This document shows, in pieces, positions 144-57,408 of a stretch of 64,000 nt of DNA. Position 1 is the first letter of the stretch. Every line of letters starts with the position of its first letter. Origin of the DNA: a virus; IMG/VR virus record IMGVR_UViG_3300028027_000061. One strand, given 5' to 3'. Below the pieces are notes generated by a model. That model saw only the letters and a list, made by a program, of their open reading frames with translations, did not search any database and was not told the DNA's origin. The position numbers and the translations under genes were made by a program.

Positions 144-218
144 GCAGGATTAGCTCAGCGGTAGAGCATCTCGTTTACACCGAGGCGGTCGGCGGTTCAA
201 TCCCGTCATCCTGTACCA
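144..218 (+). tRNA. tRNA-Val (anticodon TAC)
   Basis: Cloverleaf folds by eye. Acceptor gcaggat/atcctgt, anticodon loop tttacac, T-loop ttcaatc, encoded CCA. Confidence 0.7.
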
Positions 219-219
219 G

Positions 220-295
220 TGCCCCATGGTGCAATTGGCAGCACGTCTGATTTTGATTCAGAAGGTTCCACGTTCGAGTCGTGGTGGGGCATCCA
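220..295 (+). tRNA. tRNA-Gln (anticodon TTG)
   Basis: Acceptor tgcccca/tggggca, anticodon stem tctga/tcaga with loop ttttgat, T-arm ccacg-ttcgagt-cgtgg, CCA present. Confidence 0.7.
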
Positions 296-300
296 GATTA

Positions 301-390
<90 letters not shown>

Positions 391-397
391 TAATAAA

Positions 398-434
398 AAG
401 TGCCAAGGAAAAAAACTTGGCACTTTTTTTATTT
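398..434 (+). terminator. rho-independent terminator after tRNA cluster 1
   Basis: Hairpin gtgccaag-(loop)-cttggcac followed by T7-ATTTT. Confidence 0.6.
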
Positions 435-436
435 TA

Positions 437-469
437 GGGCTTGACAATTTCTACATTTCGAGGTATAGT
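437..469 (+). promoter_or_regulatory. early sigma70-like promoter (GGGCTTGACA-N17-TATAGT)
   Basis: TTGACA at 441-446 and TATAGT at 464-469. Member of a repeated promoter family. Followed by RBS aaaggaaat and an ATG. Confidence 0.6.
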
Positions 470-496
470 GATATTATAGTTTGAAAGGAAATCGTT

Positions 497-682
497 ATGG
501 AAGTTTTTGTTTTGAAGGGTGGCATCGGGGTTCAGTTGGGCGTCTATGCATCTGAAGATGAAGCACGGGATGCCCACGGTGTATACATTCGTGACGGCGG
601 TCGGTTCCTCGATTCCTACTATATCGTGCGGCAAGTAGTTGGTGCAACTGCAGATGCCGATGCGGATCGGATCTGGATCTAA
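497..682 (+). CDS. small protein, first of three tandem paralogs (MEVFVL...GVYASEDEA)
   Basis: ORF with RBS aaaggaaatcgttATG just downstream of the promoter. Paralogous to 699-902 and 924-1100. Confidence 0.5.
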   Translation: MEVFVLKGGIGVQLGVYASEDEARDAHGVYIRDGGRFLDSYYIVRQVVGATADADADRIWI

Positions 683-698
683 AGAAAGGAAATTGGTT

Positions 699-902
699 AT
701 GGAAGTTTTTGTTTTGATGGGTGCGATGGATCACGATGCGCATTACGTTCTTGGTGTTTATGCTTCTGAACAAGAAGCAGTAGATGCTTTGGGTGTTTAC
801 CTTCGTGACCTCGATGAATCGTGGCATGATGAGTATTATGTCGATCGCCGTGTGCTCGGTGCACATGCGGAATATGATTCCGATCCTCATCGGTACCTCT
901 AA
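699..902 (+). CDS. small protein, tandem paralog 2 (MEVFVLMG...GVYASEQEA)
   Basis: Same N-terminus and same RBS (aaaggaaattggttATG) as 497-682. Confidence 0.5.
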   Translation: MEVFVLMGAMDHDAHYVLGVYASEQEAVDALGVYLRDLDESWHDEYYVDRRVLGAHAEYDSDPHRYL

Positions 903-923
903 AGTTTTTATGGAAGGTTGATT

Positions 924-1100
924 ATGCAAGTTTATGTCGTGAACAATGAATCTCCTGGTGGAGATCACTCGATTATGGTTGGTATCTACTCGACCGAAGA
1001 AAAGGCGAGAGAGATGATCAAATTCTTGGAACGTGAAACTCCTGAATGGTATCCTACCTACTCAGTTGAAGACGTTGATCCAGAAGATCCGATGTATTAA
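924..1100 (+). CDS. small protein, tandem paralog 3 (MQVYVVNN...GIYSTEEKA)
   Basis: Shares the V-hydrophobic-x-x-G-hydrophobic-Y-[AS]-[ST]-E-[DEQ]-[EK]-A motif. The track start at 918 is a TTG, so the ATG at 924 is the more likely start. Confidence 0.45.
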   Translation: MQVYVVNNESPGGDHSIMVGIYSTEEKAREMIKFLERETPEWYPTYSVEDVDPEDPMY

Positions 1101-1105
1101 AGTTT

Positions 1106-1181
1106 AGACGAGTAGCTCAATGGTTAGAGCCGACCGCTCATAACGGTTTGGTTGGGGGTTCGAGTCCCTCCTCGTCTACCA
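1106..1181 (+). tRNA. tRNA-Met (anticodon CAT)
   Basis: Acceptor agacgag/ctcgtct, anticodon loop ctcataa, three G-C pairs in the anticodon stem, T-loop ttcgagt, CCA. Confidence 0.7.
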
Positions 1182-1241
1182 GTTAGGGTTGCTACTTAAT
1201 AGGCACGCGAGGAATCACGGTTAGTTCCTCAACCAGTTTAC

Positions 1242-1317
1242 GGATCATTAGCTCAGTTGGTAGAGCAGCGGACTCTTAATCCGCTTGTCGTAGGTTCGAT
1301 CCCTACATGATCCACCA
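1242..1317 (+). tRNA. tRNA-Lys (anticodon CTT)
   Basis: Acceptor ggatcat/atgatcc, anticodon stem gcgga/tccgc, loop ctcttaa, T-loop ttcgatc, CCA. Confidence 0.7.
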
Positions 1318-1322
1318 GTTTC

Positions 1323-1398
1323 GGACGCTTAGCTCAGTAGGTAGAGCAACGGGCTTTTAACCTGTTGGTCCTGGGTTCGAGTCCCAGAGCGTCCACCA
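1323..1398 (+). tRNA. tRNA-Lys (anticodon TTT)
   Basis: Acceptor ggacgct/agcgtcc, anticodon loop cttttaa, T-arm ctggg-ttcgagt-cccag, CCA. Confidence 0.7.
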
Positions 1399-1415
1399 TT
1401 TTAAAGGAGTTTGTT

Positions 1416-1592
1416 ATGAGTAAAATGATACTTGCATTTCTGTTCATTTTTACCTGTGTGTTCTTCGGTATTCAAATTGTTCGCGATTTGAATAAATCTG
1501 AAAAATTAAGCTTGACTAAATTGCTTGCTTATAGTATAGTGTGTACTGTGATTACGATGGTCGTGATTACTTCAATTGTTTTGATTTTCTAA
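1416..1592 (+). CDS. small hydrophobic membrane protein
   Basis: RBS aaaggagtttgttATG. Two predicted TM stretches. The track's N-terminal extension overlaps the tRNA and is rejected. Confidence 0.45.
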   Translation: MSKMILAFLFIFTCVFFGIQIVRDLNKSEKLSLTKLLAYSIVCTVITMVVITSIVLIF

Positions 1593-1606
1593 GGAATAAA
1601 GTTATT

Positions 1607-2404
1607 ATGAAAAGTGTTACTAAAGTCGTTCTTCTCGCTGGTCTGATGGCAACGACTGCTGCCTGTACTCGTATTGAAACAGGTGAAGTTGGTGTTCGGC
1701 GTTCGTTCGACAAGACCATTGAAACTACTGAGTTGATGCCAGGATCAATCAACCAGACAATGTTCGGTGATGTTATGACATTCCCAACCAAGGACGTGCA
1801 GGTTGATGTTTCTGACTTGACTCCACTTGCGTCGGACAACTCGACAGTTGCTGACTTTGACATGGCAGTAATCTATTCGATTAATCCTGGTTCGGTTGCC
1901 GAACTGTATATCGAAAAGAATCGTGGTTTCCATGCTGACACTGAAGAAGGCGATACACTTTTGATGTATAATTACATTCGTCAGTTGGGTCGTAATGCTG
2001 CCTACAAGGTTGCTCGTCGTTACGAGTCATTGAAGATGGCAGACAATCGTGCTGAGATTGAGCAACTGGTTCGCCAAGAGATTGTCGCGCAACTTGCTTC
2101 TGAGAAACTCGATGGTGCTATCTCGATTTCACAGGTTCTTGTTCGTCAGGTAAAACCTGCTGCGAATATCGTAGCGTCTGCTAACCAACTTGTCCAGGCA
2201 CAAAACGCTGAGAAGCAGAAGTTGGTAGAGGTTCGTACCGCAAAGTTGGAAGCAGAACGTATTGCTGCTCTTAATGCCAACGCTGGTGCTACTAAATACA
2301 TGGAAGCAACTGCTCTCGTGACAATCGCGGAAGCAGTTAAGGAAGGTAAGGTTTCTACCATTATTGTTCCTTATGACTTCAAGGGTATCGTGAACGTCAA
2401 GTAA
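1607..2404 (+). CDS. SPFH/band-7 (prohibitin/HflKC-like) lipoprotein
   Basis: Signal peptide with lipobox (LAGLMATTAAC). Central SPFH-like region followed by a coiled-coil A/E/Q-rich tail. Confidence 0.5.
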   Translation: MKSVTKVVLLAGLMATTAACTRIETGEVGVRRSFDKTIETTELMPGSINQTMFGDVMTFPTKDVQVDVSDLTPLASDNSTVADFDMAVIYSINPGSVAELYIEKNRGFHADTEEGDTLLMYNYIRQLGRNAAYKVARRYESLKMADNRAEIEQLVRQEIVAQLASEKLDGAISISQVLVRQVKPAANIVASANQLVQAQNAEKQKLVEVRTAKLEAERIAALNANAGATKYMEATALVTIAEAVKEGKVSTIIVPYDFKGIVNVK

Positions 2405-2413
2405 GTTTGAATG

Positions 2414-2499
2414 GAAGGTGGGCAGGACGGTAATGCAACGCACTGCTAATGCGTCTACCAGAAATGGTAGAGTGGGTTCGACTCCCACACCTTCCGCCA
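2414..2499 (+). tRNA. tRNA-Ser (anticodon GCT), class II
   Basis: Acceptor ggaaggt/accttcc, anticodon loop ctgctaa, long variable arm, T-arm gtggg-ttcgact-cccac, CCA. Confidence 0.7.
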
Positions 2500-2500
2500 T

Positions 2501-2578
2501 GGTGGATGTAGCTCAGTTGGTTAGAGTGTCGGCTTGTGATGCCGAATGTCGCGGGTTCAAGTCCCGTCATTCACCCCA
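2501..2578 (+). tRNA. tRNA-His (anticodon GTG) with encoded G-1
   Basis: Extra 5' G followed by acceptor gtggatg/cattcac. C discriminator (a His identity element). Anticodon loop ttgtgat. CCA. Confidence 0.7.
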
Positions 2579-2579
2579 T

Positions 2580-2655
2580 GGGGATGTAGTCCAAAGGCAG
2601 AGACAGAGGACTTAAAATCCTTCCAGTGTGGGTTCGAGTCCCACCATCCCTACCA
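2580..2655 (+). tRNA. tRNA with anticodon TAA (Leu by anticodon) but class-I architecture, with no long variable arm
   Basis: 76 nt. Acceptor ggggatg/catccct, anticodon stem gagga/tcctt with loop cttaaaa, 5-nt variable loop, T-arm gtggg-ttcgagt-cccac, CCA. Leu/Ser/Tyr tRNAs normally have a long arm. Confidence 0.5.
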
Positions 2656-2659
2656 TTTC

Positions 2660-2735
2660 GCGTCTGTAGCTCAGTTGGTAGAGCACTCCCCTGATAAGGG
2701 AGAGGTCGCAGGATCGAGGCCTGCCAGACGCACCA
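2660..2735 (+). tRNA. tRNA-Ile (anticodon GAT)
   Basis: Acceptor gcgtctg/cagacgc, anticodon stem ctccc/gggag with loop ctgataa. T-loop atcgagg is unusual (A at position 54). CCA. Confidence 0.65.
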
Positions 2736-2737
2736 AT

Positions 2738-2809
2738 GCCAGCAGTGCAAGTGCACGACTGACTCTCATAAGGTTGGTTCGGTAGGAGCGTTACCTACTG
2801 CTGGTACCA
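2738..2809 (+). ncRNA. degenerate tRNA-like element or small stable RNA (72 nt, ends ...tgctggtACCA)
   Basis: 7-bp acceptor-like pairing gccagca/tgctggt plus ACCA, and a CAT-containing loop. The D and T arms are non-canonical. Confidence 0.3.
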
Positions 2810-2810
2810 T

Positions 2811-2888
2811 GTCACGATGGCAGAGTGGTCCAATGCACAGGTCTGCAAAACCTGAAAACCGTGGGTTCGAATCCCACTCGTGACTCCA
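2811..2888 (+). tRNA. tRNA-Cys (anticodon GCA)
   Basis: Acceptor gtcacga/tcgtgac, anticodon stem caggt/acctg with loop ctgcaaa, T-arm gtggg-ttcgaat-cccac, CCA. Confidence 0.6.
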
Positions 2889-2905
2889 TTCTAAAGGAAT
2901 ATATA

Positions 2906-3142
2906 ATGACAGATGTTATTGCAATTGATAAGTATCGTTTGTTGGTTGAGCGTATCGAAACCATTGAACAAGAAATTGATGCCAAGAAACTAGATCGTAA
3001 GAATGTTTACGCTGATGTTAAGAGCGAAGGTTACGATGTTAAGGCAACTCGCCAGATTATTCGCCTCCGCAAAAAGGAAGCGCATGTTCGGCAAGAAGAA
3101 GATATGATTCTTGAAACATATCGCACTGCTATTGGTCTATGA
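2906..3142 (+). CDS. gapR: GapR/DUF2312-family DNA-binding protein
   Basis: 78 aa. ...LLVERIETIEQEIDAKKLDRKNVYADVKSEGYDVKATRQIIRLRKKE... resembles the alphaproteobacterial nucleoid protein GapR (recalled as IERIERLEEEK...DVYAEAKGNGFD.K.LRK...LRK). RBS aaaggaatatataATG. Confidence 0.65.
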   Translation: MTDVIAIDKYRLLVERIETIEQEIDAKKLDRKNVYADVKSEGYDVKATRQIIRLRKKEAHVRQEEDMILETYRTAIGL

Positions 3143-3147
3143 TTTAT

Positions 3148-3222
3148 GGCCCCGTCGTCTACTGGCTAGGACACGTCACTTTCACTGACGAGAAGGCGGA
3201 TCGAAACCGCTCGGGGCTACCA
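3148..3222 (+). tRNA. tRNA-Glu (anticodon TTC)
   Basis: Acceptor ggccccg/cggggct, anticodon stem cgtca/tgacg with loop ctttcac, T-arm ggcgg-atcgaaa-ccgct, CCA. Confidence 0.65.
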
Positions 3223-3234
3223 TAAAGGAATGAC

Positions 3235-3987
3235 ATGGATATATTAGTCGCATTACTTACGTCAAGAGACTCTATCAAACTAACCAGATGCATCGAGAGT
3301 GTTCTTCCTCAAACCAGTAATGTGGTTGTGGTATGCAACACTCTCGATTTTTCATATGTAGAACAGGCAAGAAAAGTTGCCGATGCATATAATCTAGAGT
3401 TTTTAGTTACTGAATCTAATGGCACACCAGCGAGAGGAAAGAACTCTGTTCTAGAGATTTTCCGATCGCGATCGCACGCATATTACATGCAAGTTGATGC
3501 GGATGATTATCTTACTCCCGATGCATTGATCAAACTTGACAAGATTGTAACTGAGAATCCAGATGTTGATGTCATTGGTTTAGTCGATGGAGCGATGACG
3601 TATAATGGAAGTGCAACAACCAGTAATGCATTTTTGTCCAATGGTAATGTGTTCAAATTTGCTGACGTGCAGGGTACACATAAACTGCGATTAGTAGAAC
3701 TTGGTAAATTATTATCGAGCAATCTACAGTATAATCGAATGCTGTTGTATTCAAGCAAGGCAATAAACACCTTTGACTTTGACGAGAAATTTATTGGATC
3801 AGAAGATATTGTTGCATCTTATAAATTATACTATGATCCAGATATAAATTATGTTCTAACGGATGAGCATCTTTATGTGTATGACTTGGAAGATAGTGGC
3901 AATTTCCATACCTTCTTGAGTAATGCGTCTGAAATTAAGAAAGTACTTAAAGAATTGAAAGTCATTTTGAATGAGTCTGCAGTATAA
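3235..3987 (+). CDS. GT-A fold (family-2-like) glycosyltransferase
   Basis: N-terminal beta-alpha start with a DxD-like motif (QVDADDYL). Confidence 0.4.
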   Translation: MDILVALLTSRDSIKLTRCIESVLPQTSNVVVVCNTLDFSYVEQARKVADAYNLEFLVTESNGTPARGKNSVLEIFRSRSHAYYMQVDADDYLTPDALIKLDKIVTENPDVDVIGLVDGAMTYNGSATTSNAFLSNGNVFKFADVQGTHKLRLVELGKLLSSNLQYNRMLLYSSKAINTFDFDEKFIGSEDIVASYKLYYDPDINYVLTDEHLYVYDLEDSGNFHTFLSNASEIKKVLKELKVILNESAV

Positions 3988-4606
3988 AACAGATCTGAAA
4001 ACAGCAATAAAGATTGTGGGTAAATTGATTAAAAAACCACACAACACAATCTTTTTGTTTCAGTTACTGCATGCTACGAACGCACCTTCTTTGAAGTGGA
4101 CATATCAAAAACTACTGGAAACAGAGCAGGGTGGTGGGGTCGCATATTCATCAGAAGAAGTATACGAATACTTTCCTACTCTTGTGAATAGACCAGAAGG
4201 TTCTGTCGGTAAACACTGCTACGATATGTTCCCGAACCAAGAACTCCTGATAAAAATAAGCAAACGAAAATCTAACGATACCTGGATTGAAGCGAAGCAT
4301 CCATACAATTGGATGGCAAGAAGATACAGAGATACACACGACACATGGCACATACTAACAGGGTATGATACAACCATACTGGGGGAGATGTGTCTTGCGA
4401 TGTTCTCCTTTGCGCAAACTAAATCGCTCGGTTGGTTGCTCATTTCATTTGTTGGGTTTGTCCACAGAGGGATGAAACTGTCTGACATTGGTTTGATACG
4501 ACAAGCATATTTACGAGGAAAGAATGCCAAGTTCTTACTTGCAGAGAATTATGATAAATTGTTCGATGAGGATTTAATCGCAGCAAGAGCACGGTTGGGT
4601 CTATGA
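3971..4606 (+). CDS. COQ4-family protein (HDxxH-x11-E zinc motif)
   Basis: Motif RDTHDTWHILTGYDTTILGE matches the COQ4 signature HDxxH(x)11E. Confidence 0.45.
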   Translation: MSLQYKTDLKTAIKIVGKLIKKPHNTIFLFQLLHATNAPSLKWTYQKLLETEQGGGVAYSSEEVYEYFPTLVNRPEGSVGKHCYDMFPNQELLIKISKRKSNDTWIEAKHPYNWMARRYRDTHDTWHILTGYDTTILGEMCLAMFSFAQTKSLGWLLISFVGFVHRGMKLSDIGLIRQAYLRGKNAKFLLAENYDKLFDEDLIAARARLGL

Positions 4607-5226
4607 TTCGTATTGACAGTAATTATCCTATAGAAGAAATGTTGGAATTCTGTAAAGAATCCAAGAATGACACACGTCCTGGTGCCGTTAATATGGATTT
4701 CGTTGACTGGGAAAACAAACCACATACTCTACTATATCTTCTGTATAAAGAGAAGAGATTCGATGGCCCCACAAACGGATATGTAATCTGCAAGAAAGGT
4801 GATCGAATTGTTTGTGGTCATGGATTTTATGTCTCAGAAATAGATAGAATGGTATGCATGGGATGCCGCACCTATACTGTTCCAGGTATAAATTGTCATG
4901 CATTACAGGGCGACATCAAAGACTTCATTTTCGATATTGTTAGAAAAAATGGGATGGCAGGGTTTTTTATCTCGATGAACGAATATAATAAACGATTCGT
5001 CCATGGGTATAATAAAATTAATGATCCCGTCAATTTCAAAACTTCTTTTCGTGATGAAACTGGACAGTGGTGGGCGAGGAAAGATAGAAAAATCTCTCCG
5101 ACAGTACCATGCGACTTCCCGATTAACTTGAAAAATGTAAAACAGTGGATTATATATCATTTGTGGGATTCTTCCTATGAAGAAGAATTGAATGTGAAAT
5201 TGAAAACTTTGGAATGGATTGATTGA
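4603..5226 (+). CDS. hypothetical protein
   Basis: 207-aa ORF. Its start overlaps the upstream stop (ATGA). Confidence 0.4.
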   Translation: MIRIDSNYPIEEMLEFCKESKNDTRPGAVNMDFVDWENKPHTLLYLLYKEKRFDGPTNGYVICKKGDRIVCGHGFYVSEIDRMVCMGCRTYTVPGINCHALQGDIKDFIFDIVRKNGMAGFFISMNEYNKRFVHGYNKINDPVNFKTSFRDETGQWWARKDRKISPTVPCDFPINLKNVKQWIIYHLWDSSYEEELNVKLKTLEWID

Positions 5227-6824
5227 TGGCATTAGATGGTATCATTTTTGGTGGGATGATCAATTCAGACGAACCAACACGACCACAGGATTTGTCTGGC
5301 ATCAGTTATAGTTCTGTTCACAGAAGCGCAGGTTCTCATAGAATTGCCTCGTTCTTACGTCAACATGGACTTGACATTGAAGTCGTAGATTTCGCCCCAT
5401 CTTGGAAATTTGAAGAATTTCAAGAGTTGATTCGTTCCCGAATGACACCAACAATGAAGTTTGTTGGACTCGGTGCGGTGTTCAATATGAACACGCAAAC
5501 TCTCTTTCGGTGTTTTGCTTGGTTGAAACAGACTTATCCAGATGTACTGTTGGTAACAGGATCCACTGATTTTTATAATCTTCACTTCATTCCAGTAGAC
5601 TACATGGTGGTTGGTTATGGCGAACTCGCTATTTTGGAGATCTTAAACGGTACTGCAAAATATACTGACGAGGTTATTGATAAGGAAGGTAACAAGCGTC
5701 GAACGGTTCATGCACTTAAACAGTATCCTGCGTATCCAATGCGTAATCTTTCAATCGATTATGAAAAACGAGATTTCCTACAACCATTTGAGTTGCTTAC
5801 TATGGAAACAAGTCGTGGGTGTAGATTTAAGTGTGCGTTTTGCACTTATCCTGTTTTGGGAGTGAAAGATGATCATACCAGATGCTCTGATGACTTTCAT
5901 GATAATCTTATGCGTAACTATGATAACTATGGTGTCTATCGATATTCGATCGCAGACGAAACTTTTAATGATCACAGCGAGAAAATTGTCAAGTACGCAG
6001 ACGTTGTAGAGAAACTTCCATTTAAACCAAATTTCGGTGGATATATCAGAGCAGATTTGCTGCACACAAGACCACAAGATATAGAACAGTTAGCAAGAAT
6101 GCGATTCAACGGGCAGTTCTATGGTGTCGAATCCTTCCATCGTCCAAGTGCTGCTGCCATTGGTAAAGGGATGGATCCTGCTAAAATACAGCAAGCAATT
6201 CTTGACACCAAGGATTACTTCATGAAACACAATGGATACTATCGAGGAACCCTCAGTTTTATTGTAGGATTGCCGCACGAGACAGAAGAAACTATGAACG
6301 AAACAATTAAATGGTGTGACGAAAACTGGAAAACCAACAGTATGCAATGGACTTCATTGATTATTGCCAGCGATCACGCCAATGTTAAGCAAAACACATT
6401 ATCTACGACGTATGAAAAGCAAGGTTATACTCTTGTTGATTCAGAAGAAATTATGCTCGATGAATCTCATCCTGATCTCAAACGAATACTGCAAAGCAAT
6501 TTTGTAGTCCCGGAATTAAAGACTTACATGCAGACCATTGTCCGTAATCTAAAACCAACGGTATTGTTACATCACTGGAAAAGCAATACAGGTATGACAG
6601 AAAGAGATGCCTTGTTGTGGATTGCCAATAATGTCTGGGGTGCCGAAAAGTATATGAATTTCGGAGTAGAACATTGGAAAATGGCAGAATGGTATGTTGC
6701 AGGTAAAACTGATCAGGATATGATGGGTTCGTATCAGGATCTAGGTGGTGTTAGACCGTCACTACATACTAAAATTGATTTTATTGAAAAATATAAGCAA
6801 CAAAAACTTAATGTCACGCAGTAA
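5223..6824 (+). CDS. B12-binding (class B) radical SAM enzyme
   Basis: N-terminal Rossmann/cobalamin-binding-like region. CxxxCxxC motif TSRGCRFKCAFCTYP. 533 aa. Confidence 0.6.
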   Translation: MMALDGIIFGGMINSDEPTRPQDLSGISYSSVHRSAGSHRIASFLRQHGLDIEVVDFAPSWKFEEFQELIRSRMTPTMKFVGLGAVFNMNTQTLFRCFAWLKQTYPDVLLVTGSTDFYNLHFIPVDYMVVGYGELAILEILNGTAKYTDEVIDKEGNKRRTVHALKQYPAYPMRNLSIDYEKRDFLQPFELLTMETSRGCRFKCAFCTYPVLGVKDDHTRCSDDFHDNLMRNYDNYGVYRYSIADETFNDHSEKIVKYADVVEKLPFKPNFGGYIRADLLHTRPQDIEQLARMRFNGQFYGVESFHRPSAAAIGKGMDPAKIQQAILDTKDYFMKHNGYYRGTLSFIVGLPHETEETMNETIKWCDENWKTNSMQWTSLIIASDHANVKQNTLSTTYEKQGYTLVDSEEIMLDESHPDLKRILQSNFVVPELKTYMQTIVRNLKPTVLLHHWKSNTGMTERDALLWIANNVWGAEKYMNFGVEHWKMAEWYVAGKTDQDMMGSYQDLGGVRPSLHTKIDFIEKYKQQKLNVTQ

Positions 6825-41468: not shown

Positions 41469-41870
41469 ATGACTATGCACCTGATGTCTCATGCGTATAC
41501 CACCACTAATACGAAGAAGCGCAAGACTTCTAATAAGGGTGTGACTGCCAAGTATGCACAGGACTGGGTGGATTACAACAAGCAGATGAAGCGGATTGGT
41601 TGTAAGACCAAAACGTTCGACGAGTATGTCCAATATCGTCAAGGCAATTACAAACCCAAGTTGCGTGGCACACCTCTCCCTGACTACCAAGTCAGCGACC
41701 ATCGTCAGAAGTATCCTTCTGGTGACGGTATTGGCGTAACCTTCGCTCGCAAAGAGAATACATATACAGGTACGCTGATCAAAGGAATCGCCACCATGCA
41801 TAAATCTAATGCAGTTCCCATTATAAATGATGAGCAAGCAATTGAAGTAGCAAGGATGCGACGAGGATGA
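41469..41870 (+). CDS. basic hypothetical protein (first gene of the radical-SAM operon)
   Basis: 133 aa. K/R/T-rich N-terminus. Confidence 0.4.
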   Translation: MTMHLMSHAYTTTNTKKRKTSNKGVTAKYAQDWVDYNKQMKRIGCKTKTFDEYVQYRQGNYKPKLRGTPLPDYQVSDHRQKYPSGDGIGVTFARKENTYTGTLIKGIATMHKSNAVPIINDEQAIEVARMRRG

Positions 41871-43186
41871 ATGTACGGGAAACATTAGATTCCGTTGGTA
41901 AGGGATTTTGTCCACAGAAATGGAGATGGCTTGGTCTCTCTTTACATACAGGACAATCTCATAGTTGTTATCATCCTCCATTTTTAACAGTTCCACTCGA
42001 TGAGATTAAATTAGATCCGTCTGCTCTACATAACAATTCTTCTGCAAAACAAGATCGAAAGAAAATGCTCGAGGGCGGAAGACCTGACGGGTGCACATTT
42101 TGTTGGAACATCGAGGATATCGGAGGAAAAAGCGATCGTATTTTACGAAACTATCCGTCAAAAAATAGTATGCTCGATTACATGTCCGAAACAGAAGTTC
42201 TACGCAATACTCCATGGGATTCTAATGTAAATCCATACATGGTAGAAGTTAGTTTTTCTAACTCCTGTAATTTTAAGTGTGGTTACTGTTGTCCGTCGGT
42301 CTCTTCTCTGTGGGAAGATGAAGTAAACCAACATGGTAATTATGATTTACAGTACGACCAATATGGGATAAACGGTAAGATATATTCTGAGAAAGAATAC
42401 AATCCATATGTTGAAGCATTCTGGAAATGGTGGCCTGATTTAAAAAATGATTTGAGGATTTTTCGAATTACTGGCGGTGAACCTCTGATGACAACAAACA
42501 CATTCAAACTATTAGATATGCTGAAGGAAGACGGTAATCCTGAATTATCGCTCCAAATAAACACAAATCTGGGAGTGAGTAATCGCAAAGTTAAAGATTT
42601 CTGTGGGCGAGTGCAGGAATTGGTTGAAATAAACCATATTAAAAATTTTAGACTATTCACCAGTCTTGAGTGCACAGATAAGCAAGCAGAATATATTCGT
42701 CGTGGTCTAAACTATGAATTGTTCTTGGAAAATGTTAACACTGTTCTAGAAACGGTGCCGACTGCATATCTAAGTTTCATGTCAACATATAACGTTCTTA
42801 CGGTTCCCTACTTCAAAGATTTTTTGCAGTTAATTGTAGAACTTCGCAAAAAGTGGGGTGATCGGATTCTTATGGATATTCCGCACCTTAAAGAACCACC
42901 TCATTGGACAATGAATATTCTTCCAAAATCATGGGGTGTGCACATAGATAATGACGTTGAATTTATGCTCCTGGATGGAGGATTTCGAGATGTTGAGATT
43001 GCTAAAATGAAACGGGTGCGTGATTATTTTTATAATGACACACATAACATAACAGAAGAATATAGATTGAATGCTAGAAAAGATTTTGCCAAGTTCTTTC
43101 CGGAATATGACCGTAGAAGCAACAGTAATTTGGCAGAAACGTTTCCCGAATTTATAGAATTTTTAGAATGGTGTAAGGAATTATAA
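41867..43186 (+). CDS. radical SAM enzyme, paralog 1 (N-terminal Cys motif read as SPASM-like)
   Basis: CxxxCxxC SNSCNFKCGYCCP. GGEP motif FRITGGEPLM. N-terminal FCPQKW ... SCYHP ... GCTFCW Cys motif. Confidence 0.6.
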   Translation: MNVRETLDSVGKGFCPQKWRWLGLSLHTGQSHSCYHPPFLTVPLDEIKLDPSALHNNSSAKQDRKKMLEGGRPDGCTFCWNIEDIGGKSDRILRNYPSKNSMLDYMSETEVLRNTPWDSNVNPYMVEVSFSNSCNFKCGYCCPSVSSLWEDEVNQHGNYDLQYDQYGINGKIYSEKEYNPYVEAFWKWWPDLKNDLRIFRITGGEPLMTTNTFKLLDMLKEDGNPELSLQINTNLGVSNRKVKDFCGRVQELVEINHIKNFRLFTSLECTDKQAEYIRRGLNYELFLENVNTVLETVPTAYLSFMSTYNVLTVPYFKDFLQLIVELRKKWGDRILMDIPHLKEPPHWTMNILPKSWGVHIDNDVEFMLLDGGFRDVEIAKMKRVRDYFYNDTHNITEEYRLNARKDFAKFFPEYDRRSNSNLAETFPEFIEFLEWCKEL

Positions 43187-43189
43187 GAC

Positions 43190-43774
43190 ATGGTTAATTT
43201 TGATGTTGTAATGTTATGGATGCAATACATCCGTAATAATCCAGAGAATGCATATCGTTTCTCGGAAAACTTTTGGCCGAGTCAGATCGAAAGTAAGAAA
43301 TGGTTGCTTGAACACGTAACTCCAATGGATCGATCTATCGTAATTTTCGGTGGATGGTATGGAGTTCTTGCACAGTTTATTGCACATAAATTTCCAGATG
43401 CCCGAATTCTAACCACAGATTTAGATTCTAGTTGTAGGCATGTATTCGCTGCTATCGACGAATGTTATCACGATATTGTCTTCCGTCAACATGACATGAA
43501 AAATGGTATGCCAATCAACGTACACCCCGATCTGGTGATCAATACCAGCAGCGAGCATGTTACGCAAGAAGTTTACGATGCTTGGTGGGACTCTATCCCT
43601 AGCACGACTAAATATATCGTCCAAGGAAATAATCTAGAAAATCCTGAGCATGTTCGTCTTGCTAATAGTCTAGAGGAATTCTTAAAAATCAACAACATTG
43701 AAGATCCGCAATATGCAGGTATGTTGAAGTGTGGGCATTTCTATAGATACATGGCAGTGGGTTATAAAAAATGA
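43190..43774 (+). CDS. small class I SAM-dependent methyltransferase-like
   Basis: Rossmann motif VIFGGWYGVLAQ. Acidic TTDLD. Later VINTSSEH. Confidence 0.4.
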   Translation: MVNFDVVMLWMQYIRNNPENAYRFSENFWPSQIESKKWLLEHVTPMDRSIVIFGGWYGVLAQFIAHKFPDARILTTDLDSSCRHVFAAIDECYHDIVFRQHDMKNGMPINVHPDLVINTSSEHVTQEVYDAWWDSIPSTTKYIVQGNNLENPEHVRLANSLEEFLKINNIEDPQYAGMLKCGHFYRYMAVGYKK

Positions 43775-45195
43775 GTGATAGTGCGCACGAAGAGCATAAT
43801 CTAGACGTCCATTCAGTAGATTCATACTGGAATTTTCTCAAAGAAAAACGAGAAGTAATCAACGCAGTTAGTCCATCTTTTTGTGCAGCAAAATGGAAAC
43901 AATCAACCATTCTTTTGTATAGCGGTGAGACACATAGTTGCCACCATCCCTCGCGACACAAGATTACTCTAGAAGATATTAAAGATAATCCACGTGGTAT
44001 TCACAATACTGCTGTTAAAAAGGCAGCACGTATTGACATGCTTAATGGCGTACAAACCAAAGAATGCGATTATTGTTGGAAGATTGAGAATCTAAACAAA
44101 GATTGGATGAGTGATCGGATATACAAATCCACATATTCGTGGGCGCTACCGCACATTGATGAAATTGTCAAATCTGGCGATGGTGCGAATATCGATCCGT
44201 CATATCTGGAAGTTGCATTCGAATCTACTTGCAATTTTAAATGCGTATATTGTAGTCCAGAAAGTTCTTCTAGATGGCAAGAAGAAATCGAAACTCATGG
44301 TCCGATCGAACTAGAAGATTTCAAATTACACGATCTTGAATGGTTGAAGGAAGTTGGAAAACTTCCAATTCATCGCAAAGAACAAAATCCATATATTGAT
44401 GCTTTCTGGGAGTGGTGGCCTGACCTCTATCCCAATTTACATACGTTTAGAATAACTGGTGGTGAACCCTTGCTCAGTAAACATACTTGGCGAGTTCTTG
44501 ATTATATCGCGGAGAACCCAAATCCTAATTTGACACTCGCGATTAATACTAATCTCAATGTTCCTGATAAATTAGTCGAGAAATTGGTGGAATACATCAA
44601 TAGAATCTCTTGCAATATTAAACTGTTTGACGTATACACATCATTAGAGAGCACTGGTAAACATGCTGAGTATTCTAGATTTGGTATGCAATTTGATGAG
44701 TTTAAGAAGAACTGTAAGTATGTCTTAGATAATACGCCGAATACAACACGGTTGCATTACATGACAACCATAAATTTAACAAGCGCACCAACTCTTCTGG
44801 AATATTTGGAATATATCAGAGAAATGCGATTGAAATATTACAGTAAGATACATGAATTTAGAGTAAGAACTCATCTGTCATATCTACGGTGGCCGAGAAT
44901 GTTATGCTTAACCTTACTTTCAGAAGAAGATAAAAAACGATTTGGCGATTCTTGGATAGAATATGTTGACAAACATAAATTAACTTCTAGAAAATCAATC
45001 GAGGAAACGTTTTACTTAGAAGAAGTTGATCAAGTAAAGCGATTAGTTGACTACATGAGATCGACAAAAGAATCGCAGTCTTTATATAAAGATTTTAGAA
45101 ACTATACTCGCAGTTTGGATAAACGCAGGAAAACATCTTTCGTAGACACCTTCCCAGAACTTGCATATTTGATGGATGATGACTATTATGGATGA
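43771..45195 (+). CDS. radical SAM enzyme, paralog 2
   Basis: STCNFKCVYCSP. FRITGGEPLL. N-terminal FCAAKW ... SCHHP ... ECDYCW. Confidence 0.6.
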   Translation: MSDSAHEEHNLDVHSVDSYWNFLKEKREVINAVSPSFCAAKWKQSTILLYSGETHSCHHPSRHKITLEDIKDNPRGIHNTAVKKAARIDMLNGVQTKECDYCWKIENLNKDWMSDRIYKSTYSWALPHIDEIVKSGDGANIDPSYLEVAFESTCNFKCVYCSPESSSRWQEEIETHGPIELEDFKLHDLEWLKEVGKLPIHRKEQNPYIDAFWEWWPDLYPNLHTFRITGGEPLLSKHTWRVLDYIAENPNPNLTLAINTNLNVPDKLVEKLVEYINRISCNIKLFDVYTSLESTGKHAEYSRFGMQFDEFKKNCKYVLDNTPNTTRLHYMTTINLTSAPTLLEYLEYIREMRLKYYSKIHEFRVRTHLSYLRWPRMLCLTLLSEEDKKRFGDSWIEYVDKHKLTSRKSIEETFYLEEVDQVKRLVDYMRSTKESQSLYKDFRNYTRSLDKRRKTSFVDTFPELAYLMDDDYYG

Positions 45196-46513
45196 CGGAT
45201 TACTTCAATTCAGAAACAGTATACTAAATTCTAAATCTGCATCGTTTTGCGGCGCAAAATGGGGCAATAGTACACTGTGGTTAAACAGTGGAGAAACCAG
45301 CAGCTGCCATCTTCCTCCTGTTCATAAAATAGATCCAGAGCAAATTTTATCAGATCCAGCAAAACTGCATAATACTGATCATAAAAGTAAGATGCGACAA
45401 CTTATGAAAGATGGGCATAAACCTTCTGAGTGCGATTACTGCTGGAAGATCGAGAGCATGGGACCCGATTATATTTCAGATCGTGTTTTTAAGTCGTTGC
45501 AGTTTACACCAGAAGAAATGCAATCTTGGTTTGATAAACCAGCAGATGCTCGTATTATCCCGCCTACATTAGAAGTTATGTTTGATAGAACCTGTAATTT
45601 TGCATGCAGTTATTGTAATGCAAATTTTAGCACAACTTGGGAACGAGATATAAAGAAGCACGGACATTATAATCTTGAAACTGCAGGTGGTGGGGCGTTC
45701 AAGCATGATGGTACTACAAATAATTGTCACGAGAAAACAGAAAATCCATATATCAAAGCATTTTGGGAATGGTGGCCAGAACTTAGTAAAGAACTTCGCA
45801 CACTAAGAGTTACTGGTGGTGAACCGCTGATGAGCACAGATGTTTGGAAATTAATAGATCTGTTTGCAGAAGAGAAATACAAATTCGAATTAGGAATCAA
45901 TAGCAACCTTGGTGCAAAAAAATCCATCATAGATAGACTAATAGAGAGATCGCACGATATTAATAATCTTACTATCTTCACAAGTATGGAAACTACGGGT
46001 GCGCAAGCAGAGTATATTCGTGATGGATTAGATTATAACTCTTGGTGCGATAATGTTGAGCGGATTCTTGGAGAATCTAATGTGAAACGTATCGTTGTTA
46101 TGATGACGATTAATGCATTGTGTCTCTTCAACGTAACTGAAATTATGGATCAAATTATGCTATGGAAACGTCGTTATGGAAATCGTATAAGCATGAGTAT
46201 AAACTTTCTTCGGTTTCCTGCGTTTCAGAGTCTAACTGTTTTGCCAGATTCTATTAGGGAAACTGCTTACCAGAATCTTAGTGATTGGATCCAGAAAAAT
46301 AGAGACAATCCCGATCTTATGTTTACCGAGAAGAGTGATGTTGAACGATTAATTTCGTATGTAAATATCATTGAAACACCGCATTCTTACGATACTGATC
46401 TTGAGAAGAATCGCAAAGATTTTAAAAAGTTTTATTCTCAATATAGTTATCGTAGGAATAAACCAATAGATGTATTTCCACAGGAGTTTTTACAATGGTT
46501 CAATACTCTTTAA
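45176..46513 (+). CDS. radical SAM enzyme, paralog 3
   Basis: RTCNFACSYCNA. LRVTGGEPLM. N-terminal FCGAKW ... SCHLP ... ECDYCW. Confidence 0.6.
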   Translation: MMTIMDDGLLQFRNSILNSKSASFCGAKWGNSTLWLNSGETSSCHLPPVHKIDPEQILSDPAKLHNTDHKSKMRQLMKDGHKPSECDYCWKIESMGPDYISDRVFKSLQFTPEEMQSWFDKPADARIIPPTLEVMFDRTCNFACSYCNANFSTTWERDIKKHGHYNLETAGGGAFKHDGTTNNCHEKTENPYIKAFWEWWPELSKELRTLRVTGGEPLMSTDVWKLIDLFAEEKYKFELGINSNLGAKKSIIDRLIERSHDINNLTIFTSMETTGAQAEYIRDGLDYNSWCDNVERILGESNVKRIVVMMTINALCLFNVTEIMDQIMLWKRRYGNRISMSINFLRFPAFQSLTVLPDSIRETAYQNLSDWIQKNRDNPDLMFTEKSDVERLISYVNIIETPHSYDTDLEKNRKDFKKFYSQYSYRRNKPIDVFPQEFLQWFNTL

Positions 46514-47688
46514 GAAATGACGGGTATTGTGCCCTGCCATTCAATCACATGAATCTTCATCCGAACGGAAACGTTTCTGTTTGTTGTGTTTCTAAGATGG
46601 ATGGACCTGACAGTGGATTTGCTAAGGATCAGGATGGAAACTTATTCAACCTAAAAACGCATACGCTTGATGAAATTTTTAATAGTTATTCTACGAATAA
46701 AATTCGTTCAGAAATGTTAACACAACAGTATCCCTCTGCGTGTGAAGGTTGTTACAAGATTGAGCAATATGGCGGAAAGTCGCGACGAATTACTGAAAAT
46801 AATCGATGGGAAAATATTGAGAAACCTAAATTAGAATTTCTAGATATTAGATTAAGCAACCTTTGTAATTTAAAGTGTTTGATGTGTTATCCTGATTCTA
46901 GTTCTTCTCTAGTCTCAGACTACAAAGAATGGTCAGACCAACTTCCGTTTATGACAAAAAACAGTGCCGATTATGAGTTATTCCAGTGGTTCGACGAAAG
47001 TATTATTGATCAACTATATGCACATAAAGACACTCTGAAGTATCTCTATATTAATGGTGGTGAACCTTTTATTATGCCGATGCATTGGAAATTACTCGAA
47101 AAACTAATAGAATGGGGTGTTGCTAGTAACATTCATATTAGTTACAACACCAATTGCACAACTTACGATGAATCGTTTAGTGATTATTGGAAACACTTTA
47201 AGGTTGTTACTGTTGGTTGTAGTATGGATGCAGTAGGAGATAGAAATAAGTTTATCCGATACCCAAATGATTGGGAAAAGGCAAATACGAATATTCGAAA
47301 GTTGTTAGAAAATCCCCATATCGCTGCCTTAAACATTACATGTAGCATCCAATGGTTGAATGCACCTTATTTACCTGAGTTTTATGAATGGGCAGTTCCA
47401 CTCACAAAACTCAAACCCCACACAACTATCAATCAGAACTTTATTGTGTTTCCTGAGTATCTCTCGCTAAACTGTGCATCGAAACAATTCAAAGAAGATT
47501 TGAAAATGCTATATGAAGAATCACCACATTCAAACTGGATTCTTACTGAAACAATGAAATCATATCTTCGCACAGAGTCACAGGACAATGATCTTTGGAT
47601 CAAGGGCAATAAATACTTAGACGTTGTTCAACTGAGTAGAAAAATGGGACCGTGGAAAGACATATTTAACTATGACTATCAATACTGA
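46495..47688 (+). CDS. radical SAM enzyme, paralog 4
   Basis: SNLCNLKCLMCYP. YINGGEPF. N-terminal CALPFNHMNLHPNGNVSVCC ... CEGCYKIE. Confidence 0.6.
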   Translation: MVQYSLRNDGYCALPFNHMNLHPNGNVSVCCVSKMDGPDSGFAKDQDGNLFNLKTHTLDEIFNSYSTNKIRSEMLTQQYPSACEGCYKIEQYGGKSRRITENNRWENIEKPKLEFLDIRLSNLCNLKCLMCYPDSSSSLVSDYKEWSDQLPFMTKNSADYELFQWFDESIIDQLYAHKDTLKYLYINGGEPFIMPMHWKLLEKLIEWGVASNIHISYNTNCTTYDESFSDYWKHFKVVTVGCSMDAVGDRNKFIRYPNDWEKANTNIRKLLENPHIAALNITCSIQWLNAPYLPEFYEWAVPLTKLKPHTTINQNFIVFPEYLSLNCASKQFKEDLKMLYEESPHSNWILTETMKSYLRTESQDNDLWIKGNKYLDVVQLSRKMGPWKDIFNYDYQY

Positions 47689-48961
47689 AAATAACAAAAG
47701 TATTTGTAAATATCCATGGGATCATAGTTACATAGGATCGCAGTACGAGCGGAAACTTTGCTGTATATCAGATGACATTGTCTCACAGGAAAAGACGGAA
47801 ACCAAAGATTTCTGGAATTCTGATGTGATGAAAGATGTTCGAAAAAAGATGCTCGCTGGAGAAAAGGTTGATGCCTGTTCAGTTTGTTATAAAAACGAAG
47901 AACAGAACATTGAATCTTTACGTCAACAGAGTTGGAAGAGTCCCTGTAGCGAAGAAGAAATGATCTCTGAGGTCATAAGCAAGACTAATGAAGATGGTTC
48001 TACGGTAGAACTTCCCACATATTTTGACTATCGAACCATTCACTGTAATTTGCAGTGTATAAGTTGTGGATCGCTATACAGTTCGAAACATGCCTCATTA
48101 TATTCCGAAATGTGGAACAGTCGCCCTAAAATGTTTCCTTCTGGTAAAGAATTTGTCATTGATTATGAGTTCGAAGATTCGATGGCGGAGGAAATTATTG
48201 AATGTCTTGATACGCGAAGGTTGACAAAAATTTATTGGGCTGGTGGTGAACCAATGATGTCAGGCGTGCATTGGAAAGTAGTCGACAAATTGTTGGAGAT
48301 TCAATCAACAGATCCACAATATATATTCAGTATCTTTGTTCATTACAATACCAATCTAACACGCCTTCACTGGAAGGGAAAGATTATTCCTGAGTTATTG
48401 GAGTTTTACCAACCAAGCATACAGGCAAGTTTAGATGGGACGCATGAAACTTTTGAATTTTGTCGAGATGGTGCATCCTGGGAAACAGTTTCTACTAACT
48501 GGAAAGAATATCATTCTAGACTGAACAAGAGAAATCAATTTGGTCTTTCTAGTATTATGTCTGCGCCAGTTCTTATGGATATAGACAGATGGTTTGAATT
48601 TTATGAACCGTATGACCCAGAACTGCATTCGCACAAATTATTTAATCATATTAATCGAAAAACTCAACAAGGATTCCTAGACATTCGGTTATACCCACAA
48701 CAAATTTTTGACCGAATAATTGATCATGCCATTAAGCGGTTTGAAGAGTGTTCTTTGAGAGGAAAAGAAAGAACGATTGCAATATTAAAATCGTATAGAT
48801 TGGACAAAAGCAATAACCCGATTTATTCGGATCTGGAAATGTTAAAACTGATGAAGAAAAACTGGCAATACAGAGAAAAGTTTCTTCTAGGAAAACACAC
48901 CTTTGAGAGTCTAACTGCAATTATTGACCCAGAGGTAAGAGATTGGTATTTGTCAATATGA
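47672..48961 (+). CDS. radical SAM enzyme, paralog 5
   Basis: IHCNLQCISCGS. YWAGGEPMM. N-terminal ICKYPW ... LCCIS ... CSVCYK. Confidence 0.6.
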   Translation: MTINTENNKSICKYPWDHSYIGSQYERKLCCISDDIVSQEKTETKDFWNSDVMKDVRKKMLAGEKVDACSVCYKNEEQNIESLRQQSWKSPCSEEEMISEVISKTNEDGSTVELPTYFDYRTIHCNLQCISCGSLYSSKHASLYSEMWNSRPKMFPSGKEFVIDYEFEDSMAEEIIECLDTRRLTKIYWAGGEPMMSGVHWKVVDKLLEIQSTDPQYIFSIFVHYNTNLTRLHWKGKIIPELLEFYQPSIQASLDGTHETFEFCRDGASWETVSTNWKEYHSRLNKRNQFGLSSIMSAPVLMDIDRWFEFYEPYDPELHSHKLFNHINRKTQQGFLDIRLYPQQIFDRIIDHAIKRFEECSLRGKERTIAILKSYRLDKSNNPIYSDLEMLKLMKKNWQYREKFLLGKHTFESLTAIIDPEVRDWYLSI

Positions 48962-50103
48962 GCGAAACTAAAATTTATTGTCCATCTATGTGGAAATCAG
49001 TGCATGTTGATACCGATGGTTACCTTACTCCATGTTGCCTTTTCATCCACAGAGAAGATAAAAAAAGTAAACTTGTAGATATACAACATGCTGAGAGTGT
49101 CCTACAAGAAGAATTCCAGGAATATCGTGATCAACTATCGAACGGTGTTTGGCCGAGCGGGTGCAACCAGTGTAAATTCGCAGAAGACGAAGGGCGAGAT
49201 AGCAAACGTCAACAAGATATGTGGATGTTACACAATGGAACGATGAAAACGCCACCCGAAGACGTTTCTCTTGAATATTTACAGTTAAAAACTGGAAGAT
49301 TATGTAATCTCCGTTGCACGATTTGCACTCCTGCATGCTCAACTGCAATTTCAACCGAACTTTTACGCATAGGAAAATTGGATCGAGCAACATATGATCG
49401 TCTCAATGAAGAGATTGCTTGGTCTTATGATTTAGAACAGTATAAAAAACTTAATCCTGGTGATGATGGTTACTTTAGAATTGATATTGCTGGTGGCGAA
49501 CCTCTACTAAATAAGACACACTTTGAGTGGTTGGATCAATTATCTAATCCAGAAAAAACAATATTACAATACAATACGAATGGAACACAAAGACCAACCA
49601 GGAAAGAGATTGATATCTGGAAAAAATTCAAAGGTATAGTTTTGTCTTTCAGTATAGATTCTTATGGCGATAAGTTCGAGAAACTTAGAGTTGGTGCTAA
49701 GTGGGATCAAGTTCTGGATAATTTAAAATACTGCCAAGAAGAAATTATTACAAAGGAATTTGATTTACAAACATCAAATGTTTCTATCGTTATGACAGTA
49801 AGTAAAATGAACGTTAGAGACCCAATTACCCTTTATAAGATATTGACTCAATATGTGCAGTTTACTAATTCAGAACCATTAAATTTCAACTATTTGTATT
49901 ATCCCGATCACATGGCATGCCACAATATGTCTCGCCAGGAACTTGAAGAAGTAATTGCATTGTATGATGCTGAAATACCTTCGTTACCCGAAAATAGTAA
50001 GATGCGAAAACAATGTTTGGATTTACGAAACAGTCTATTTACCTTCTTAGATGGAAAGGAAGTAGAAAACCCAAGACCAATGCCGAAAGATCATAGAGAA
50101 TGA
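48943..50103 (+). CDS. radical SAM enzyme, paralog 6
   Basis: GRLCNLRCTICTP. IDIAGGEPLL. N-terminal YCPSMW ... PCCLF ... CNQCKF. Confidence 0.6.
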   Translation: MVFVNMSETKIYCPSMWKSVHVDTDGYLTPCCLFIHREDKKSKLVDIQHAESVLQEEFQEYRDQLSNGVWPSGCNQCKFAEDEGRDSKRQQDMWMLHNGTMKTPPEDVSLEYLQLKTGRLCNLRCTICTPACSTAISTELLRIGKLDRATYDRLNEEIAWSYDLEQYKKLNPGDDGYFRIDIAGGEPLLNKTHFEWLDQLSNPEKTILQYNTNGTQRPTRKEIDIWKKFKGIVLSFSIDSYGDKFEKLRVGAKWDQVLDNLKYCQEEIITKEFDLQTSNVSIVMTVSKMNVRDPITLYKILTQYVQFTNSEPLNFNYLYYPDHMACHNMSRQELEEVIALYDAEIPSLPENSKMRKQCLDLRNSLFTFLDGKEVENPRPMPKDHRE

Positions 50104-50930: not shown

Positions 50931-50998
50931 AACTTATTTTGTTAAACGTTCGCACATCCGCCGAATGAAGAAAATAAGAAAACTAGATCCCTTTATCT

Positions 50999-56797: not shown

Positions 56798-57403
56798 ATG
56801 ACTTCCTTTAACAAGAAGTTTTTCAAGTTTCTTTCGATTTTTACAGTATTAGTATATAGTTTATATGGAATCAATTCATATGCTGAAGATGCTATCGAGA
56901 GAGATACGAGGGAATATTCCCTCGGCTTTGTAGAAGTAATCCAAGAGATTAAAGAAGATGCGGCAGAAGAAAAGAAGAAAACCGCACTAAGAAAAATTGA
57001 AACCCAAAACATACATTTAGCAAATAATCGCGAATTGAAGTGTCTAGCAGACAATATTTACTACGAGGCAGGAAACCAGTCAACTCAAGGAAAGTTGGCG
57101 GTTGCTGCAGTAACTATCAATCGCGTAAAAAGTCCCAAGTTCCCGAAGTCTGTATGCGCAGTCGTGTATCAGAGAACTAAGCGTGTTTGCCAGTTCTCAT
57201 GGGTATGCGAAGGTAAAAAAACTGTGCGCAGTGCCCAGCAATATTCAGAATCTAAAAAAGTTGCTGAAAAAGTATTGCTTTCTGGGGCAAATCACGGTAT
57301 ACTTGGACGTAACGTGCTATTCTACCATGCGGATTATGTAAATCCAAGATGGAACTTGAGGCGTGTTGCGAAAATCGGTGATCACATTTTTTATGCAGGA
57401 TAA
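56798..57403 (+). CDS. secreted SleB/Hydrolase_2-family cell-wall hydrolase (endolysin candidate)
   Basis: Signal peptide. Domain LAVAAVTINRVKSPKFPKSVCAVVYQ ... QFSWVCEG typical of SleB-like lytic transglycosylase/amidase_2. Confidence 0.6.
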   Translation: MTSFNKKFFKFLSIFTVLVYSLYGINSYAEDAIERDTREYSLGFVEVIQEIKEDAAEEKKKTALRKIETQNIHLANNRELKCLADNIYYEAGNQSTQGKLAVAAVTINRVKSPKFPKSVCAVVYQRTKRVCQFSWVCEGKKTVRSAQQYSESKKVAEKVLLSGANHGILGRNVLFYHADYVNPRWNLRRVAKIGDHIFYAG

Positions 57404-57408
57404 TAACT

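Follow-up and report, generated by a model that had tools for sequence, protein, structure and literature searches.

The small gene at positions 2906-3142 of the 64,000-nt stretch of viral DNA studied here (the window) encodes a member of the GapR family (PF10073/UPF0335), and our analyses show it, within the reach of sequence comparison, to be a functional, phage-resident gene of a T4-like myovirus. A tblastn search found GapR homologues in 128 deposited phage genomes, T4-like ones among them, so phage GapR is already a known kind. What is new here is another lineage of phage GapR in an unusual location.

Identity and structure of the GapR-like protein

The gene and its immediate neighbors are as follows:

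2811-2888, plus strand: tRNA-Cys (GCA), called by ARAGORN, Rfam tRNA score 65.4 bits, CCA encoded
2889-2905, plus strand: gapR leader, 17 nt, TTCTAAAGGAATATATA, with a Shine-Dalgarno-like motif AAGGA at 2894-2898
2906-3142, plus strand: gapR-like coding sequence (GapR/DUF2312/UPF0335 family), ATG start, 78 amino acids and a TGA stop
3143-3147, plus strand: gapR trailer, 5 nt (TTTAT), from the TGA stop to tRNA-Glu
3148-3222, plus strand: tRNA-Glu (TTC), called by ARAGORN, Rfam score 49.8 bits

The leader begins at the 3' end of tRNA-Cys, leaving gapR 17 nt from the upstream tRNA-Cys and 5 nt from the downstream tRNA-Glu. ARAGORN and Rfam agreed on both tRNA genes, confirming the flanks proposed in the initial annotation. 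Its description of the gene as leaderless had to be abandoned: the AAGGA motif of the leader is spaced 7 nt from the ATG, and relatives have homologous leaders of 17-20 nt with a purine-rich AGGAG, AAGGAA or AAGAAAG. Two longer gene models were rejected as gene-calling artefacts, namely a 105-aa ORF that starts from GTG at 2825 and reads across tRNA-Cys, and, likewise, the 109-aa database entry P0008.

The GapR-family identity of the 78-aa protein is secure at the level of profiles and alignments. Pfam PF10073 (GapR_DNA-bd, formerly DUF2312) matched it with E=6.1e-23 and 80.7 bits (gathering score 22.6), spanning positions 3-72 of the 72 model positions. A phmmer search of PDB chains aligned residues 1-77 of Bosea GapR (6cfy/6cfx) with residues 1-77 of the window protein (E=5e-15), and returned Caulobacter GapR (6cg8/6jyk/6ozx) with E of about 1e-12. 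The proposal of a GapR/DUF2312 homologue was thus borne out by the family profile and by full-length alignment with solved GapR chains; both checks named in the initial annotation, a DUF2312 match and an alignment with Caulobacter GapR, were positive, and the lack of a DUF2312 hit that it had named as counter-evidence was not observed. Two narrower NCBIfam models scored below their cut-offs, the GapR equivalog NF052541 with 60.4 (cut-off 140) and the subfamily NF010247/PRK13694 with 79.3 (cut-off 94). The window protein is a divergent family member and not an equivalog of cellular GapR. A profile search of the window ORFs found no second GapR.

We mapped the functional residues of Caulobacter GapR onto the window protein. 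In the Caulobacter protein, the channel-lining lysines are K34, K42, K49, K56, K59 and K66, and E28-R65 forms a structural pair (PMC7373187, PMC6853979); H3 (A77-I86), a hydrophobic helix at the C terminus, links the dimers of the tetramer (PMC7373187). Five of the six channel-lining basic positions were kept in the alignment: K42, K49, K56, K59 and K66 correspond to K32, K39, K46, R49 and K56 of the window protein. The position of K34 is occupied by I24, near which K28 and R31 are invariant across the phage lineage. The structural pair corresponds to E18 and R55. For H3, window residues 67-76 (MILETYRTAI) align with Caulobacter residues 77-86 (AILDLYLSAI), with I68, L69, Y72, A75 and I76 retained, and this helix is the most conserved part of the phage-lineage GapR. 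An AlphaFold2 monomer model (pLDDT 85; helices at 2-27, 36-40 and 45-75) was unlike the GapR crystal protomer, and a Foldseek search with it against the PDB returned no solved GapR and no significant match of any kind. Both results are uninformative, because GapR folds as an intertwined tetramer and the protomer is meaningful only within it.

The tRNA array and the gapR locus

The gene lies in a tRNA array that holds the following further features:

144-3222, plus strand: tRNA array, 12 called tRNAs in four blocks, with small ORFs between them
395-428, plus strand: strong terminator-like hairpin just past tRNA-Ser(UGA), with a 13-bp stem and then a T run
441-469, plus strand: best sigma70-like promoter match, TTGACA-17-TATAGT, 11/12 (consensus scan only)
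497-682, 700-902 and 918-1100, plus strand: three tandem paralogous small ORFs, each of about 60 aa
1416-1592, plus strand: predicted membrane protein of 58 aa, between tRNA blocks
1604-2404, plus strand: SPFH/Band 7 protein (PF01145, E=6e-14), between tRNA blocks

The ORFs embedded in the array are therefore three DUF7336-like paralogues, the 58-aa membrane protein, the SPFH/Band 7 protein and gapR. The tandem paralogues have in common the motif MxVaVl...aGVYaSxxEA...Y, and the third of them (918-1100) matches Pfam DUF7336 with E=2e-7. The pairing of the membrane protein with the SPFH protein (1416-2404) resembles NfeD-SPFH pairs.

The hairpin and the promoter match together (395-469) likely mark a transcription-unit boundary within the array. 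The match at 441-469 is a tentative candidate for the start of a long tRNA/ORF transcript that would include gapR, and a scan found no terminator-like site on the plus strand between 469 and 4200. We treat this promoter as tentative because the total of promoter-like matches in the scan equalled, and did not exceed, the shuffled expectation. A dedicated gapR promoter, GTGACT-16-TATAAT at 2880-2907, was considered and read as a chance match, since it runs into the ATG and relatives do not share it. On this arrangement, gapR would share an early polycistronic precursor with the tRNAs of the array and would be translated from its own Shine-Dalgarno site. Processing at the 3' end of tRNA-Cys and the 5' end of tRNA-Glu would set the ends of the gapR mRNA, and RNase P cleavage of tRNA-Glu would leave nearly no 3' UTR.

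A separate observation concerns positions 2737-2809 (plus strand), between tRNA-Ile (2660-2735) and tRNA-Cys, which encode a conserved 75-nt cloverleaf-like RNA that was not called by ARAGORN and had no Rfam match even at E<=10. It consists of a 7-bp acceptor stem followed by A-CCA, a 4-bp D stem with the 4-nt loop AAGU, an 8-bp anticodon stem with the loop CUCAUAA (anticodon CAU), a 2-nt variable region and a 5-bp T stem, whose loop AGCGUUA lacks the T-psi-C consensus. The RNA occurs at the same place in five related contigs (L001, L002, L006, L016 and L023). All 120 pair cells (100%) were paired, compared with 17-47% in slid controls, and compensatory double changes were present at four pairs. 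Its features suggest an atypical tRNA or a small RNA of tRNA origin.

The setting between tRNAs recurs in the lineage: tRNA genes bound gapR in 23 of 25 related IMG/VR loci. The order is Cys|gapR|Glu in close relatives and Gln|gapR|Ser(UGA) in relatives whose protein is 72-79% identical. The corresponding junctions also occur empty, with the tRNAs 3-5 nt apart: the window has such a Gln|Ser(UGA) junction, and L006 a Cys|Ser(GCU) junction. The ORF is accompanied by its leader (17-20 nt, TTyT...purine-rich...ATATT) and by its trailer (5-6 nt, ...TTTA), so gapR has moved as a unit between inter-tRNA spacers and kept its tight packing. In two relatives, insertions of 556 and 706 nt lie 3' of gapR, so tRNA adjacency on this side is not obligatory. 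In the sublineage L018-L022, the upstream tRNA-Gln is cut down to its last ten or so nucleotides, and a promoter-like site, TTGACT-17-TATATT, stands about 50-95 nt upstream of gapR (locus coordinates about 4905-4950). With this site in place of tRNA-Gln, the tRNA array unit would begin with gapR there.

The gene is under purifying selection, as judged from its codons. Measured against the relatives that are 72-79% identical in protein, dN/dS was 0.14-0.26 with dS of 0.7-0.9, and for codons 46-78, which cover helices 2 and 3, dN/dS was only about 0.02-0.1. Over 31 homologues, 24 columns are invariant. The 78-codon frame, the length and the Shine-Dalgarno motif were kept in all copies examined (23 IMG/VR contigs), and a large protein database holds homologues in 31 clusters with 56-100% identity, on contigs of up to 168 kb. 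In composition gapR resembles the phage (GC 39.7% and GC3 0.32, versus 40.8% and 0.34), its full-length identity to the nearest cellular proteins found is about 45-54%, and the window lineage forms its own cluster. A recent capture from a host was ruled out by the composition and by the distance of the cellular matches, which together argue that gapR has long been resident in the phage.

The phage and its probable host

Two further features concern the phage itself:

56200-56658, plus strand: permuted two-piece tmRNA, called by ARAGORN, Rfam RF04321 score 83.9 bits, tag ANDNVAFAGYALAA
57409-59416: T4-type gp33, gp59 and gp32, with gp33 at 57409-57684

Both the T4-like character and the permuted tmRNA of the initial annotation were upheld, the former by gp33, gp59, gp32 and the cultured relatives and the latter by ARAGORN and Rfam. 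PhoH, a PD-(D/E)XK exonuclease and the tmRNA precede gp33-gp59-gp32, in the same order as in Methylophilales phage Melnitz, whose tmRNA has been reported with a glutamine riboswitch (PMC9004378). Melnitz and Pelagibacter phage HTVC008M each encode a counterpart, 39% identical, of a 684-aa cyclase-like protein of the window. By gene content, the window phage is a T4-like myovirus related to HTVC008M and Melnitz, and its relatives are classified in Kyanoviridae. The GC content of the window is 40.8%, versus 33.4% for HTVC008M and 37.6% for Melnitz. Described pelagimyophages were recovered with a 30-35% GC filter (PMC7029224), outside which the window falls, and that paper does not mention GapR/UPF0335. 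When all ORFs of HTVC008M and Melnitz were searched by hmmsearch with phage-lineage and bacterial GapR profiles, no GapR was found. In this group, gapR is therefore an accessory gene of an uncultured sublineage and not part of the core.

Several other regions of the window deserve mention. A SleB-like cell-wall hydrolase lies between the tmRNA and gp33 (region 56798-59416). On the plus strand, 41867-52423 is a run of large ORFs, of which 41867-43186 and 43771-45195 match phage radical-SAM families and a Nol-like carbamoyltransferase (50999-52423) closes the run; this is possibly a modification or biosynthesis cluster. Close to another radical SAM protein (5223-6824) are a GT2 glycosyltransferase and a Coq4-family protein (3235-4606). 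On the minus strand, 59450-61954 encodes an 834-aa protein with a peptidase/endolysin-like segment at residues 515-610 or thereabouts, low-complexity repeats (five PTSA and three VPGQ[AT]P units) and long Ala/Gly-rich stretches. Its position corresponds to that of a tape-measure-like gene of HTVC008M.

The initial annotation had taken gapR, alongside the tmRNA, as an independent indication of an alphaproteobacterial host. Such a host is likely on the present comparisons. The named hosts of GapR-carrying phages are nearly all Alphaproteobacteria, including Rhizobium, Agrobacterium, Sinorhizobium, Caulobacter, Brevundimonas, Rhodobacter, Ruegeria, Zymomonas and Acetobacter. Among cellular matches, 37 of 38 were alphaproteobacterial, the exception (L061) being a Solirubrobacterales MAG. 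A pattern-limited contig scan returned no Pelagibacterales or Methylophilales, which is not evidence of their absence. A literature search on GapR in Pelagibacter gave nothing useful. On the other side, four Microcystis phages (Mwe-JY25, Mwe-JY07, Mwe-JY08 and vB_MweS-yong2) have a GapR homologue, as do several metagenomic phages. Contamination, prophages, non-axenic host cultures or a true spread of the family might each explain the GapR occurrences beyond Alphaproteobacteria and their phages. The cultured relatives HTVC008M, whose host is the alphaproteobacterial SAR11, and Melnitz, whose host OM43 is not alphaproteobacterial, are both without gapR. The tmRNA is no guarantee of an alphaproteobacterial host in this phage group either, since Melnitz keeps an alpha-type tmRNA and tRNAs with its non-alphaproteobacterial host (PMC9004378). 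Overall, the host assignment stood as a likely one, and gapR proved a useful, not a decisive, marker for host prediction in this uncultured T4-like group at 41% GC. The tRNAs give a further indication. The related contig L006 has 22 tRNAs, and most array tRNAs have T at the first anticodon position. This hints at a host more GC-rich than the phage, which would be a poor fit with SAR11.

Possible roles and comparison with known systems

GapR is a DNA-encircling tetramer that stimulates the removal of positive supercoils, and Caulobacter GapR prefers overtwisted and AT-rich DNA and stimulates gyrase and topo IV (PMC13408042). The best explanation of the window gene, and one that we hold to be reasonably probable, is a GapR DNA clamp that manages supercoils in phage replication and late transcription and is made from a tRNA-processed mRNA. 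For the window protein itself, we infer the oligomeric state, the DNA preference and the stimulation of topoisomerases. The 78-aa protomers would dimerise through the long N-terminal coiled-coil helix, and the C-terminal helix would pair dimers into a tetrameric ring encircling double-stranded DNA. The ring would touch the phosphate backbone through K32, K39, K46, R49 and K56, with a salt bridge between E18 and R55. In the manner of Caulobacter GapR, the clamp would favour overtwisted and AT-rich stretches in front of replisomes and RNA polymerases, where it would assist host type II topoisomerases in clearing positive supercoils. Both the rapid replication of the 41%-GC phage genome and its late transcription, which is coupled to replication, would benefit. 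A link to replication is suggested by Caulobacter phage Cr30, whose homologue (gp140) is encoded two genes upstream of those for the gp45 sliding clamp and clamp loaders, and by the annotated genes of HTVC008M and Melnitz, which include no topoisomerase. The window is part of a phage genome, and a phage topoisomerase may lie elsewhere in it.

A different role is suggested by T4 DsbA (PF11126), a small double-stranded-DNA-binding enhancer of late transcription that Iyer et al. (2021) described as a GapR-family homologue (PMC7824862). The window protein may be the functional counterpart of DsbA, an enhancer of late-promoter transcription rather than a topology sensor, with DsbA carried by T4-like phages of Gammaproteobacteria and canonical GapR by those of Alphaproteobacteria. 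In addition to the stated homology, T4 DsbA gave a weak in-register match to PF10073 (E=0.026), and hhalign aligned GapR 28-76 with DsbA 36-87 (P=0.0012). A tblastn search with T4 DsbA returned 1474 records dominated by Gammaproteobacteria phages, to which the ten commonest organism names and all listed rows belonged. The window has gp33-gp59-gp32 but no DsbA next to gp33, a phmmer search with T4 DsbA found no match among all window ORFs, and a GapR homologue in a Rhodobacter phage is annotated as 'DsbA-like protein'. The distributions of DsbA and GapR are thus suggestively complementary as far as these searches go, which would support a role in replication or late transcription. Nevertheless, the homology signal is weak: the HH probability was 20%, BLASTP found no similarity between window GapR and T4 DsbA, and PF11126 did not match the window protein at E<=1. 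The rnh-dsbA-33 order is conserved in eight Straboviridae, whereas gapR lies outside this position and gp33 of the window is preceded by the cell-wall hydrolase and the tmRNA. Both GapR and DsbA are missing from HTVC008M and Melnitz, which argues that the group can carry out late transcription with neither. We consider a DsbA-like role fairly unlikely as the alternative, and it overlaps with the clamp explanation without excluding it.

It is very unlikely, in our judgment, that the protein serves as a host-takeover factor, which would co-assemble or compete with host GapR or coat the host nucleoid, and so disturb host replication and chromosome organisation or divert host topoisomerases to phage DNA. 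Mixed tetramers are conceivable, because H2 and the tetramerisation helix are the most conserved parts and closely resemble those of bacterial GapR; sigma70-like promoters probably drive early expression of gapR together with the tRNA array, and homologues are almost confined to phages whose hosts have GapR. However, this reading is purely inferential, and the strong purifying selection on DNA-contact residues is easier to reconcile with an active clamp than with a poison subunit. A functionless passenger or a miscalled ORF in the spacer DNA of the tRNA array might be suspected from the small size of the gene, its unusual place and its absence from the nearest cultured relatives. Against this stand the Pfam match (E=6e-23), a dN/dS well below 1 with dS of up to 0.9, the frame, length and Shine-Dalgarno motif kept in 23 IMG/VR loci together with the 31 database clusters, and the retention of gapR through array rearrangement. 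The gene is almost certainly no such passenger, and we regard this alternative as refuted as far as sequence analysis allows. Returning to the clamp, we also considered a broader scheme, in which T4-type phages would all use a GapR-superfamily clamp, present as derived DsbA in phages of Gammaproteobacteria and as canonical GapR in those of Alphaproteobacteria (Cr30, the phiM9 group and the window lineage). Here the clamp would come from a tRNA-punctuated early mRNA, act on host type II topoisomerases or host GapR, and shift supercoil management to phage DNA. As a whole, this scheme is quite unlikely to hold.

GapR is a well-studied sensor of positive supercoiling, yet the literature found contains no functional characterisation of its phage copies. 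The one paper found that names a phage GapR, a 2025 study listing it as an auxiliary gene of Erythrobacter phages, including R34L1, provides annotation only (PMC12185513). The window lineage is abundant in metagenomes, as its protein clusters and long contigs indicate, and since its GapR is compact and strongly conserved, it could be used to investigate why phages have such a clamp. The tight tRNA-ORF-tRNA packing would also provide an example of a protein gene whose mRNA ends come from tRNA processing. Current understanding is not overturned by the finding of a phage gapR.

Compared with the cellular proteins, the window protein is 38% identical over the full length to Caulobacter GapR (CCNA_03428; 6CG8, 6OZX and 6JYK) and 45% identical over the full length to Bosea GapR (6CFX and 6CFY), with which it has the 78-80-aa format in common. 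All three have a common three-helix design, and the 10-residue N-terminal extension of Caulobacter GapR is missing from the window protein. Cellular GapR is encoded by an essential chromosomal gene, whereas the window gapR is phage-encoded and AT-rich like its phage. Many of the phage homologues already bear the annotation DUF2312, UPF0335 or 'Azospirillum phage Cd Gp10 family'. Cd gp10, phiM9 gp194, Cr30 gp140 and R34L1 GapR are single-domain proteins like that of the window, and phage homologues are 31-49% identical to it over the full length and up to 55% over partial matches. Cr30, the phiM9/RHph group and the window lineage are all T4-superfamily myoviruses, and T4 DsbA is, like the window GapR, a small helical DNA-binding protein of a T4-type phage. 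The difference lies in the location. In Sinorhizobium phage phiM9 (gp194) and Rhizobium phage RHph_I1_9, gapR is found among small early genes beside a RecBCD inhibitor; these copies and that of Cr30 lie elsewhere, whereas in the window lineage the gene is inside a large tRNA array. Protein genes are co-transcribed with tRNAs in the E. coli thrU-tyrU-glyT-thrT-tufB operon, and the tRNA cluster of T4 contains small ORFs and stable RNAs. As in these two systems, the mRNA ends of the window gapR would come from tRNA processing within a polycistronic transcript. Unlike in them, the window ORF is flanked by tRNAs on both sides, at distances of 17 and 5 nt.
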